A stretch of 63,684 bases of DNA, counting the filler, from Nitrospiraceae bacterium (GTDB lineage: Bacteria; Nitrospirota; Nitrospiria; Nitrospirales; Nitrospiraceae), in the NCBI GenBank assembly GCA_037442105.1. It is 3 parts of 3 records of this genome, joined end to end, with 100 filler letters (N's around TTAATTAATTAA, not from the genome) between each part and the next. Parts side by side here need not be neighbours in the genome. Positions count along the whole stretch, not along the records: positions 38,576 to 63,684 come from JBBIQV010000039.1; 2 more parts are not named here. The stretch is one strand, 5' to 3'. This document shows positions 61,339-63,684 of this stretch, piece by piece. Under the pieces are notes generated by a model that saw only the letters and a list, made by a program, of their open reading frames with translations, searched no databases and was not told the DNA's origin. Position numbers and translations under genes: made by a program. Position 1 is the first letter of the stretch; the number at the start of each line of letters is the position of its first letter.

Positions 61339-61995
61339 ATGTTCACCGGCATTGTCGAAGAAATGGGCGCGGTGGCCTCGCTGGAGAAGACTCTCGCCGG
61401 CACGAGGCTCACGATCCTTGCCTCCACGGTCATGAGCGATCTCAAGATCGGCGACAGTGTCAGCGTGAATGGGACTTGCTTGACCGTCGTCACCAAAAAG
61501 GAGAAGGAGTTCGCGGTCGAAGTCTCGCCGGAAACCCTGTCCGTCACCACCCTCGGGGGCCTTGCCGCTGGAACGCCGGTCAACCTCGAACGGGCGATGA
61601 AGCTCAACGAGCGGATCGGCGGGCACCTTGTCGCCGGGCATGTGGACGGCGTCGGCACGATCCGCAGCCGCAAGCAAGAAGGGAACGCGATCGTCTTCAC
61701 CATCGAGGCACCTCCGGAGATCTTGCGCTACTGCATCGTGAAGGGTTCGATCACGGTCGATGGCATCAGTCTCACGATCAATGAGGTGACCGACCGCGGG
61801 TTTTCCGTCGCGATCATTCCGCATACGGCGAAAGTCACCACGCTTGGCCTCAAGCAAGTCGGTGATACCGTGAATTTGGAATCCGACCTGATCGGCAAGT
61901 ACGTCGAGCGGTTGCTCCAAGAGCGTGGGCAACTTCCTTCCAAGCCAACTCCCGTCATCGACAAAGACTATCTCCAAAAGCGCGGGCTGATCTAG
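61339..61995 (+). CDS. ribE: Riboflavin synthase
   Basis: 'MFTGIVE', 'SVNGTCLTV', 'GGHLVAGHVD', 'KGSITVDGISLT'. Confidence 0.97.
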   Translation: MFTGIVEEMGAVASLEKTLAGTRLTILASTVMSDLKIGDSVSVNGTCLTVVTKKEKEFAVEVSPETLSVTTLGGLAAGTPVNLERAMKLNERIGGHLVAGHVDGVGTIRSRKQEGNAIVFTIEAPPEILRYCIVKGSITVDGISLTINEVTDRGFSVAIIPHTAKVTTLGLKQVGDTVNLESDLIGKYVERLLQERGQLPSKPTPVIDKDYLQKRGLI

Positions 61996-62001
61996 TTAAG
62001 G

Positions 62002-62036
62002 GCTGTTAGCCGTCAGCTTTCAGCCGTCAGCCGTCA
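62002..62036. repeat. Heptamer tandem repeat
   Basis: GCTGTTA GCCGTCA GCTTTCA GCCGTCA GCCGTCA; complementary degenerate arm at 61304-61333 on the other side of ribE. Confidence 0.75.
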
Positions 62037-62154
62037 ACTGCGGTGGGAAGCTCTGCTTCAAGAACGGCTGGGCACGGCCCCCCTGCGGTGCTTGCTCAAG
62101 CAGTCCGGTCCAATGAAATGGAAGTATTTCTCAGGCCTACCAGCTAGGTAGCAC

Positions 62155-62183
62155 TTGACGGGGAGTATGAATCGGCTGACAAT
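62155..62183 (+). promoter_or_regulatory. Putative sigma70 promoter for intI
   Basis: TTGACG-N17-GACAAT. Confidence 0.5.
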
Positions 62184-62226
62184 GTGCCGCGCCGGTTCAT
62201 AGGCCCCCCGGCACAGGCATGGAAAT

Positions 62227-63504
62227 ATGGAAGAGTTGGCGACAGCAAGAAGAAATGCTGAGCCCAGTCGGGGTGAAGGGTTGAGAATGCCGATCGAAGC
62301 GATTCGGATTAGGCCGGGAAAAGAAGGGCAGCTCATCGTGCATGTCCCTTATTCTCCCGAGCGTGTCGCGAAGATCAAGACCGTCGCCGGTCGACGGTGG
62401 CATCAGCAAGAGAAACACTGGACTGTGCCCCAAACGAAAGAGACCGTCACACAACTAGTGGCCCTCTTTACTGGAGAGCCGACGGAGGTCGATCCTGCGC
62501 TGGATATCTGGCCCGTCCCCCGACAGGAAAAACGGACGCCGGACACTTCTTCAGCCTTGTTTGAGCGACTCGAGAGGGAGTTGCGCGCTCGGCACTATGC
62601 TCGCCGGACCGAACAAGCGTATGGCCATTGGATCAGACGGTTCACCCGCTTTTATCATGGCCGTCCACCCGCTGAGATGGCCGAACCGGAGATTAATCGG
62701 TTTCTGACGCATCTGGCCGTGACGGAGAAGATCAGTGCCTCGACACAAAACCAAGCGCTGGCGGCGCTGCTCTTCCTCTACCGCCACGTGATTGGGCGTG
62801 ACATTGGCGACCTCGGCGAGGTCATCCGGGCCAGAAAGCCAGAACGGCTGCCCGTGGTTATGACCCGCGAGGAGGTCAGAGCCGTCCTCGCAAACCTGAC
62901 CGGGGACAAGTGGTTGATGGCCTCGATCATGTATGGCGCAGGGCTGCGGCTGATGGAATGCCTGCGCCTCCGGGTGCAGGATATTGACTACGCTCGCAGC
63001 GAACTATTGATTCGCGACGGCAAGGGCGCGAAGGACCGGATGACCATGTTGCCCGAATCGGTCAAAGCTCCGTTACAGGACCATCTCCAGCAGGTTCAAG
63101 CCGTTCATCAACAGGATCTCGCCGAAGGGTGGGGCCGCGTTGTGCTTCCACACGCACTCGACCGCAAGTACCCCAATGCGTCGCGAGACTGGCGCTGGCA
63201 GTGGGTCTTTCCCCAAGACCACAGATGGATGAACGACAAGACCAAGGAACAAGGGCGTCATCACGTTGACGAATCACTGGTGCAGAAAGCCGTTAGAGAC
63301 GCTGTGGCGAAGGCCGGGCTCACCAAGCGGGCCACGTGCCATACGTTCCGGCATTCCTTTGCCACGCACTTGCTTGAGAGCGGCTCTGATATCCGAACCG
63401 TTCAGGAGTTGTTGGGCCATCGCGACGTCAAAACGACGATGATCTATACGCACGTGCTGCATCGAGGGCCGGCGGGCGTTCGTAGTCCGTTGGACGAAAT
63501 GTGA
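62227..63504 (+). CDS. intI: Integron integrase with N-terminal extension
   Basis: SAM-like '[14 protein letters not shown]'; catalytic R, K, HxxR, H, Y ('GLRLMEC', 'GKGAKDR', 'HTFRH', 'LLGH', 'MIYTH'); IntI-specific insert '[29 protein letters not shown]'; start 62227 or 62287. Confidence 0.95.
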
Positions 63505-63523
63505 ACCCATGTCAGGAGGAGTA

Positions 63524-63684
63524 TTATGCCGATCCGCATAAGACGCCGTGATAAATGGCCCCACAGTCGTATCTCATTGAAACGACAACGACAATGGCAT
63601 TATGCCTGGAACATTTGCACGGTGTGTTATACGGACAGAAATCGGCAAATCCGCTCTTATGCGGATCGGCCTAAACATTGTTAG
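63524..63684 (+). other. Putative attI recombination site downstream of intI
   Basis: Ends GCCTAAACATTGTTAG (compare attI1 CCCTAAAACAAAGTTAG); repeated TTAT(G/A)C units upstream; sequence stops within the GTTRRRY core. Confidence 0.65.
63526..63684 (+). CDS. 52-aa leader ORF across putative attI (ORF-11-like)
   Basis: AGGAGG RBS, ATG at 63526, open for 52 codons, TAG stop is the TAG of the GTTAG core. Confidence 0.45.
   Translation: MPIRIRRRDKWPHSRISLKRQRQWHYAWNICTVCYTDRNRQIRSYADRPKHC

Follow-up and report, generated by a model that had tools for sequence, protein, structure and literature searches.

Integron integrases have been classed as simple two-domain recombinases (PMC8138268). Near the end of the stretch of DNA analysed here – the window, 63,684 nucleotides joined from three contigs of a Nitrospiraceae assembly (GCA_037442105.1) – lies an integrase gene whose product has a further segment in front of those two domains, and the locus raises the question of whether this segment is a genuine domain, what kind of domain it is, and what it might do for an integrase. 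An earlier note on this DNA had likened it to the HARP domain of SMARCAL1, suggested that it helps with folded single-stranded attC sites or with the atypical junction, and supposed that it defines a distinct integrase subtype. The features of the locus are collected in Table 1.

Table 1. Features of the integrase locus, in window positions, with the evidence for each
Feature	Positions	Strand	Basis
Candidate sigma-70 promoter of the integrase (TTGACG, 17 nt, GACAAT)	62155..62183	+	promoter scan
Integron integrase gene, P0001, 405 aa	62287..63504	+	TIGR02249 and alignment to VchIntIA 2A3V
HARP-type N-terminal domain, residues 5-72	62299..62502	+	AlphaFold, fold searches, profile matches, conservation, dN/dS
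Flexible variable linker, residues 73-90	62503..62556	+	pLDDT, alignment, dN/dS
SAM-like core-binding domain (PF13495), residues 91-174	62557..62808	+	Pfam E 3.3e-30
Catalytic domain (PF00589), residues 192-391	62860..63459	+	Pfam E 1.8e-33
IntI-specific insertion region, about residues 269-323	63091..63255	+	aligns to 2A3V
attI-region inverted repeat, arms 63524-63543 and 63655-63674 (20 nt, 95% complementary)	63524..63674		repeat search
attI-like core site, predicted crossover between G and TT at 63680/63681	63668..63684	+	relatives' alignment

Judged by its sequence, the product of the ORF is an integron integrase. It scores 470.1 bits against TIGR02249, where the curated cut-off is 265, and its residues 98–404 align with VchIntIA (2A3V) at an E-value of 1.5e-84 with one single-residue gap. 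The catalytic set – R221, K246, H352, R355, H378 and Y387 – is complete and invariant, or nearly so, in the alignment of relatives. Matches to XerA split around the IntI insertion region, while 2A3V aligns across it; this region contains the I2 helix. On a tree of core sequences the protein, which has the insertion, groups with IntI and not with the insertion-less HARP recombinases discussed below. Its named close relatives are mostly Nitrospira records. Among the 30 matches listed, no plasmid record matches the integrase before residue 108.

The candidate promoter is the sole promoter-like match in 61900–63684, where 0.6 matches would be expected by chance, and is weak alone; in an alignment of 11 related upstream regions, 7 have TTGAC at the position of its -35 element. 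A start at the upstream ATG (62227) was rejected, as this codon is not kept among relatives. A conserved chromosomal site was also rejected: ribE is the upstream neighbour solely here and at a single distant locus, and the relatives differ in their neighbouring genes. Contigs of two runs join the end of ribE (61993) to the attI region (63620) with other sequence between; they possibly come from a relative that has lost the integrase at this site, and the match is weak, its shorter side being 40 letters long. The end of contig C1 of the source genome holds another copy, whose N-terminal domain is the same. Other integrase copies or fragments lie at the start of C28, at C35:32169–32276 and at C19:49336–49431, and the end of C1 and the start of C28 share a reverse-complement integrase stretch.

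The extension is present as the earlier note described it: 90 residues precede the start of PF13495 at residue 91 (110 if counted from the ATG at 62227), and the 33-letter peptide quoted in that note is residues 16–48 of the ORF starting at the ATG at 62287. The interval then assigned to the domain covered residues 1–65 and stopped short, since the domain extends to about residue 72. In the AlphaFold model residues 1–70 have a pLDDT of about 88 and are arranged as beta-beta-alpha-beta-beta-alpha-beta, with five strands and two helices. The linker that follows is modelled as disordered (pLDDT below 50 at residues 74–86) and varies in length and sequence among relatives. Residues 1–75 are matched at E≤1e-3 by 51 other proteins, and PF13495 is present in 50 of these.

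Selection has acted differently on the three parts of the protein. In comparisons with 17 intact relatives, dN/dS was 0.11–0.24 over residues 5–70 (17 of 17), 0.10–0.20 over the integrase core (12 of 17 pairs, the rest being saturated) and 0.31–1.44 over the linker (8 of 17 pairs computable), although these pairs all share the window sequence and so are not independent. The start codon is at the same codon in 10 of the 17 relatives (7 ATG, 3 GTG/TTG). As far as coding sequence can tell, the N-terminal domain is under purifying selection. It is thus highly improbable that the segment is vestigial or untranslated and that the enzyme starts at the SAM domain. Many copies are broken, with intact fusions at just 37 of 80 genome loci, and some databases annotate 307-aa starts. 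However, the 307-aa annotation of L024-type copies starts beyond a stop codon and truncates the SAM domain, and the low dN/dS in all 17 comparisons, the conserved start codon and promoter, and the confident fold are hard to reconcile with a vestige. Translation from a downstream start, which the earlier note had raised as a way for its proposal to fail, is disfavoured by the sequence evidence of the domain dN/dS, the start codon (10 of 17) and the promoter element (7 of 11).

The count of 37 loci is a script count of 39 intact fusions less two with a stop inside the domain, and includes five that are insertion-less; the non-intact loci are contig-cut, frameshifted, stop-interrupted or deleted. 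L024 and L028, which have different integrase cores, are both interrupted by a stop, located at one and the same HARP-domain codon. L003, L011, L016, L041 and L052 are internally deleted remnants, in which the HARP-coding 5' end is retained and fused to the final portion of the gene, and at L052 an attC is still present downstream.

The kinship of the domain with HARP was examined by profile and by fold. Against Pfam HARP (PF07443) it scores 15.1 bits, below the gathering score of 25, and because of this it is filed here as HARP-type and not as a member of PF07443. Pfam HARP is matched at E≤1 by 11 of the 14 members of its family (best 1.6e-4). DUF5710 (PF18974) was rejected, with 16 bits against a cut-off of 26.5 and a weak match in 3 of the 14. 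The only PDB sequence match of the 14-member profile is the HARP domain of SMARCAL1 (4O66, E 0.072), in which residues Y22, K31, R36, K43 and W45 of the window domain are identical. HHalign matched the domain profile to the N-terminal domains of P0153 and P0183 (97.6%, E 3e-12). These two are SNF2 helicases; their copies are in tandem, and as whole proteins they reach the HARP cut-off of Pfam. The 14-member profile has 2921 matches at E≤1e-3 among 1.84 billion representatives; 49 of the best 150 of these have an integrase-core match, and many others end in recognisable broken integrase sequence. When 34 longer or multi-copy proteins of this set were scanned with Pfam, two were SNF2 helicases and six were SAM_4 recombinases with 2–4 copies. 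The best 150 thus comprise fusions to recombinases, broken copies of such fusions, and SNF2 helicases.

Fold searches pointed to the same proteins. The top match in VIA-align was the N-terminal domain of T4 UvsW (Z 8.0, near the level the tool calls common; rmsd 2.4, 65 residues aligned), followed by XPB (Z 5.9), the C-terminal domain (CTD) of MotA (Z 4.8) and 4O66 (Z 4.4, rmsd 2.5, 51 residues), with eIF1/SUI1 and ACT-like folds interleaved at Z 5–6. The search of an AlphaFold model with Foldseek, which the earlier note had advised, bore out the HARP likeness in rank, with XPB and 4O66 at the top of the PDB matches, but not in significance, as no PDB match reached E≤1e-3. Against BFVD, Foldseek found phage helicase and HepA-related proteins (TM 0.67–0.70, E 6e-4). 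No arm-binding domain fold was among the matches listed by Foldseek for PDB or by VIA-align. The best ESM Atlas feature score, 0.89 to Bacteroidota clusters, is a lead only. The proposed resemblance to HARP thus holds in profile homology, topology and fold matches, and is qualified by a Pfam score below the cut-off and by modest structural scores. Because these modest scores agree with the profile homology, the N-terminal domain is assigned, from sequence profiles and a predicted structure, as HARP-type. Mason et al. in 2014 are said to have placed HARP, UvsW-N, XPB and MotA in one structure-specific nucleic-acid-binding fold.

Conserved positions of the domain are Y22, K29, K31, G35, R36, R37, W38, K43, W45, P48 and F61. 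Among 318 distinct domains, K31 is kept in 94%, W38 in 98% and W45 in 97%, and lysine or arginine is found at positions 29, 36, 37 and 43 in 77–88%. The net charge of the domain is +3 (10 K/R, 7 D/E). By Pfam, only integrase domains come after the HARP-type domain, and there is no ATPase.

The surroundings of the gene were then compared with those of its relatives. The inverted repeat of the attI region is kept in relatives with and without the HARP-type domain, and the relatives agree with the window up to the GTT (63680–63682) and then diverge at once. The contig, C39, ends at 63684, and the cassette array lies outside the window; Logan contigs of three runs end at 63682–63684, leaving one loose end, and no contig end of the source genome could be joined to supply the window's own first cassette. 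The attC model found no attC within the window. The source genome has six attC matches, on other contigs (C2, C12, C28, C31 and C41).

Arrays are visible in the relatives. In 35 loci, a simple hairpin detector found 35 sites downstream and 2 upstream. An attC model was built from 28 of the detector's sites and applied to 80 genome loci. It identified 87 sites (the 28 training sites among them), spread over 35 of the loci, all 87 on the integrase strand and 85 downstream. In a polarity control, five canonical integrons (L198, L199, L201, L203 and L211) gave upstream minus-strand matches. With attC co-oriented in its relatives, the window locus is predicted to be an inverted integron, an arrangement known from an inverted integrase group of chromosomal integrons that has already been named (PMC3575428).

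The earlier note had asked whether the extension co-occurs with reverse orientation. Every HARP-bearing locus with detected attC is co-oriented, but so are HARP-less ones: a search with a HARP-less sister gave 80 metagenome loci, of which eight had a HARP match (six of them with co-oriented attC). Inversion was also seen at 18 loci that lack HARP although 300 or more bases of upstream sequence were present, a count that leaves out L185 with its possible divergent HARP. The domain is therefore ruled out as cause or marker of the inverted orientation, HARP-less sisters being inverted too. HARP-specific features of attC or attI were also sought, and none was clear in 56 attC sites of HARP-bearing and 31 of HARP-less integrons or in the attI regions compared. 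Median attC length was 79 versus 75 nt, folding energy per base was -0.27 versus -0.25 (p 0.30), and total energy gave p 0.036, uncorrected.

Several other observations concern the attI region. In the window, TTGAAA and TATGCC with an 18-nt spacer (63577–63606) form a possible cassette promoter inside it; relatives have better -10 matches, and the promoter scan did not call this candidate. At L031, L037, L049, L060, L069, L072 and L086, which are unrelated loci, shared non-cassette sequence starts right after the attI GTT. These sequences are possibly insertion elements that target the crossover triplet, and may explain the contig breaks. L049 and L141 have a second SAM_4 recombinase just behind attI, insertion-less and HARP-less; in L049 it comes after the shared sequence.

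The distribution of the domain is patchy. Among the best 120 core homologs, it is present in 39 of the 42 with at least 80% identity and in only 3 of the 78 with lower core identity. Among 251 genomes of the same phylum, 13 have the domain – in some of them on insertion-less recombinases or remnants – and 56 have an IntI over the cut-off. On a core tree of 108 rows the HARP-bearing IntI do not stay together but are spread over several positions; two of the rows labelled HARP-less there, P0237 and L039, represent short annotations or broken copies. Monophyly of the HARP-bearing IntI was rejected with a p-AU of 9e-9, in a test of 20 HARP-bearing and 16 HARP-less rows (36 of the 108, picked after the first tree was seen, under LG+G4 without a mixture). 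On these 36 rows the HARP label needs seven changes, four of them forced by starred branches. The proposal of a distinct integrase subtype is not borne out by these results, with monophyly rejected, seven changes on the tree, and 75 of the 78 homologs below 80% identity lacking the domain; the same domain also occurs on recombinases without the IntI insertion.

Domain and core also differ in their closest relatives. The window domain is 70–74% identical to those of P0018, L059, P0019 and P0011, whose cores are just 54–60% identical, and 56–64% identical to those of the insertion-less L053, L056 and L083, with cores 41–45% identical. The HARP-less sisters have cores 76–80% identical to that of the window integrase, and have intact genes, the same attI layout and retained arrays. 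L025 is 62–82% identical to the window over promoter and HARP, and mostly 48–73% over the core. Because HARP identities exceed core identities across lineages, the scatter of the domain would be most simply explained by a 5' module, consisting of promoter and HARP segment, that was swapped between cores at the variable linker. Repeated loss of the domain is the alternative; the HARP tree, poorly resolved with 2 of 45 branches starred, would allow either direction of transfer as well as several losses. The domain has moved between distant phyla, and in its distribution behaves as an optional, exchangeable module, presumably for DNA binding.

A different extension, of 100–190 residues, is found at the N-terminus of other IntI from the same phylum (L115, L117, L119–L121, L123–L128 and L130–L136). 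In all four of those tested it holds PF13495, a second SAM-like domain, in the place of HARP, as would be expected if this position can take one DNA-binding module or another. Occupation of this position by a second SAM-like domain would also suit another reading of the HARP-type domain, as an arm-binding module that recognises duplex repeats next to attI or its own promoter, in the manner of the arm-binding domains of phage integrases and of the MotA CTD, which binds duplex DNA. Many tyrosine recombinases have an arm-binding domain at the N-terminus (PMC8138268), a complex of the MotA CTD with dsDNA (5JLT) is among the fold matches, and the attI region has its 20-nt inverted repeat. This reading is nonetheless quite unlikely, as the same attI repeats are found in HARP-less L139, L141, L147, L152 and L154, and the attI regions of proteins whose HARP domains are 70% identical are unrelated in sequence.

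Outside IntI, the same domain is carried by recombinases of about 365–375 residues in which 40–44 residues of the IntI insertion are missing, and which form a clade of their own on the core tree. At these loci a GTT site follows the gene, and then co-oriented small genes (GmrSD, HicAB, ParE, GrpB). An insertion-less HARP recombinase, a GTT site and cassette-like genes are seen together at L103:6500–9620 (G114:C75), and also at L102, L053, L083, L090 and L097. At L103, three 85-nt repeats fold as attC-like hairpins whose outer arms are extended. No site was reported by the canonical attC model at the insertion-less loci searched, the L103 repeats being missed as well, and comparable repeats were not clear at L102, L090 or L097. 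The L103 recombinase is frameshifted, and its genome has a canonical IntI elsewhere. P0105, P0108, P0136, P0148, P0155 and P0164 are SAM_4 recombinases of 469–789 aa with 2–4 tandem HARP-type domains.

Both types of recombinase, with and without the insertion, adjoin cassette arrays, and the insertion has been reported as not fully conserved in an integron-like subgroup (PMC8138268). The idea that HARP is purely a substitute for the insertion is ruled out for the window protein: the two modules co-occur in it, so that the one is not simply a replacement for the other. It is possible, though doubtful, that the HARP-type domain was the original branched-DNA sensor of older insertion-less cassette recombinases and was repeatedly passed onto IntI cores, so that two independent solutions to the recombination of folded single-stranded DNA are found together here. 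If so, the window protein would link two classes of integron between which parts, and perhaps cassettes too, are traded, and the older, insertion-less class would be one that standard integron searches miss.

Several functions of the domain can be weighed. In the reaction of IntI a duplex attI recombines with a folded bottom-strand attC in a single exchange followed by replicative resolution, attC sites being recombined as folded single strands via an atypical junction (PMC12614218). The IntI core of the window protein would carry out this usual chemistry – double-stranded attI with folded single-stranded attC, one strand exchange, resolution by replication – and the HARP-type domain, tethered by the linker and lacking an ATPase, would be an accessory that adds avidity and is of use to the enzyme but dispensable. 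Judging by its family, such a single copy probably binds branched DNA, and its conserved basic and aromatic residues are in keeping with this. Its target would most likely be the single-strand/double-strand junction at the base of the folded attC, which it would grip so as to raise the capture of folded cassette sites; we regard this as quite possible, if somewhat short of probable. Against it, the net charge of the domain is only +3, the attC sites of HARP-bearing and HARP-less integrons are alike, with no visible specialisation of the substrate, and sisters without the domain keep intact genes, attI layout and arrays. In SMARCAL1 HARP domains dictate annealing, which needs only the second copy, and work alongside an ATPase (PMC3409536); an isolated copy may bind weakly.

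The likeness of attC structure between integrons with and without the domain would fit a function other than capture, and the domain might instead act at or after strand exchange, holding the atypical Holliday junction or bringing the integrase to replication forks or gaps, and so lead to resolution by replication in place of reversal or a second cut. Its closest folds are those of fork- and junction-processing proteins (UvsW, SMARCAL1, XPB); SMARCAL1 migrates Holliday junctions and regresses forks (PMC3409536), and integron recombination from duplex DNA requires replicative resolution (PMC12614218). However, remodelling in such proteins needs an ATPase, which is absent here, and HARP-less sisters have kept their arrays, and we consider this role rather unlikely.

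A role as adaptor for a protein partner such as SSB, a helicase or the replisome, with no binding of DNA, would suit the low net charge, the long flexible linker, the 2–4 tandem copies in some relatives and the exposed tryptophans, which could form a protein interface. SSB and IntI compete for attC, which is a further point for an adaptor. We hold it to be unlikely all the same, since the residues in common with the substrate-recognition domain of SMARCAL1 are the most conserved ones, and spread between distant phyla is easier to square with DNA as the ligand than with a partner peculiar to one host.

Binding at the base of the folded attC remains the preferred reading, and the interest of the locus lies partly in that step, since understanding is still incomplete of how integrases capture folded attC sites and of how the atypical junction comes to be resolved. 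Sisters with cores 76–80% identical, with and without the domain, make a clean deletion-and-graft experiment possible, and, because recombinases with the IntI insertion and recombinases without it both carry the domain, the origin of that insertion becomes open to test. Many attC clusters without an integrase have been reported (PMC9024848), and insertion-less HARP recombinases may explain part of them. If the domain raises attC recombination, it would be a part for integron-based synthetic biology.

A literature search, mainly of open-access papers, found no HARP domain on an integrase. Within it, no paper was found on integrons and HARP-like domains or on insertion-less HARP recombinases at cassette arrays, and the only N-terminal extension of an integrase met with was an MBP tag. 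The text and seven supplementary files of PMC8138268 make no mention of HARP. The window adds an intact enzyme that has both the IntI insertion and a HARP-type domain, and comparisons showing that integrases can do without the domain, that its bearers are not one clade, and that orientation does not depend on it.

Compared with known systems, the window enzyme has in common with integron integrases (TIGR02249; VchIntIA, IntI1) the SAM-like and catalytic domains, the insertion and the catalytic residues, and its locus has an attI-like core with GTT and, in relatives, canonical attC hairpins. It differs from these enzymes in the extra 68-residue HARP-type domain and linker in front, and its locus differs from canonical integrons in that the gene is co-oriented with the array and upstream of attI. 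In the inverted integrase group, attI and cassettes lie downstream on the same strand, as in the window and its relatives, but the HARP-type domain is present in a minority only (13 of 251 same-phylum genomes, against 56 with an IntI). With the HARP domains of SMARCAL1 (PF07443, 4O66) and of bacterial and phage SNF2 helicases, the window domain shares topology, the Y-K-R-K-W pattern and profile homology; unlike them it is below the Pfam cut-off, present as a single copy, and placed on a recombinase without an ATPase. The N-terminal domains of T4 UvsW and XPB and the T4 MotA CTD are its best fold matches (Z 8.0, 5.9 and 4.8), yet with just 5–12% sequence identity, and the likeness seen is one of fold. 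The insertion-less SAM_4 recombinases, with 1–4 HARP-type domains, have an N-terminal domain up to 64% identical to that of the window protein and are likewise encoded in inverted layout, their genes being followed by a GTT site, but lack the 40–44 insertion residues that the window enzyme has kept.
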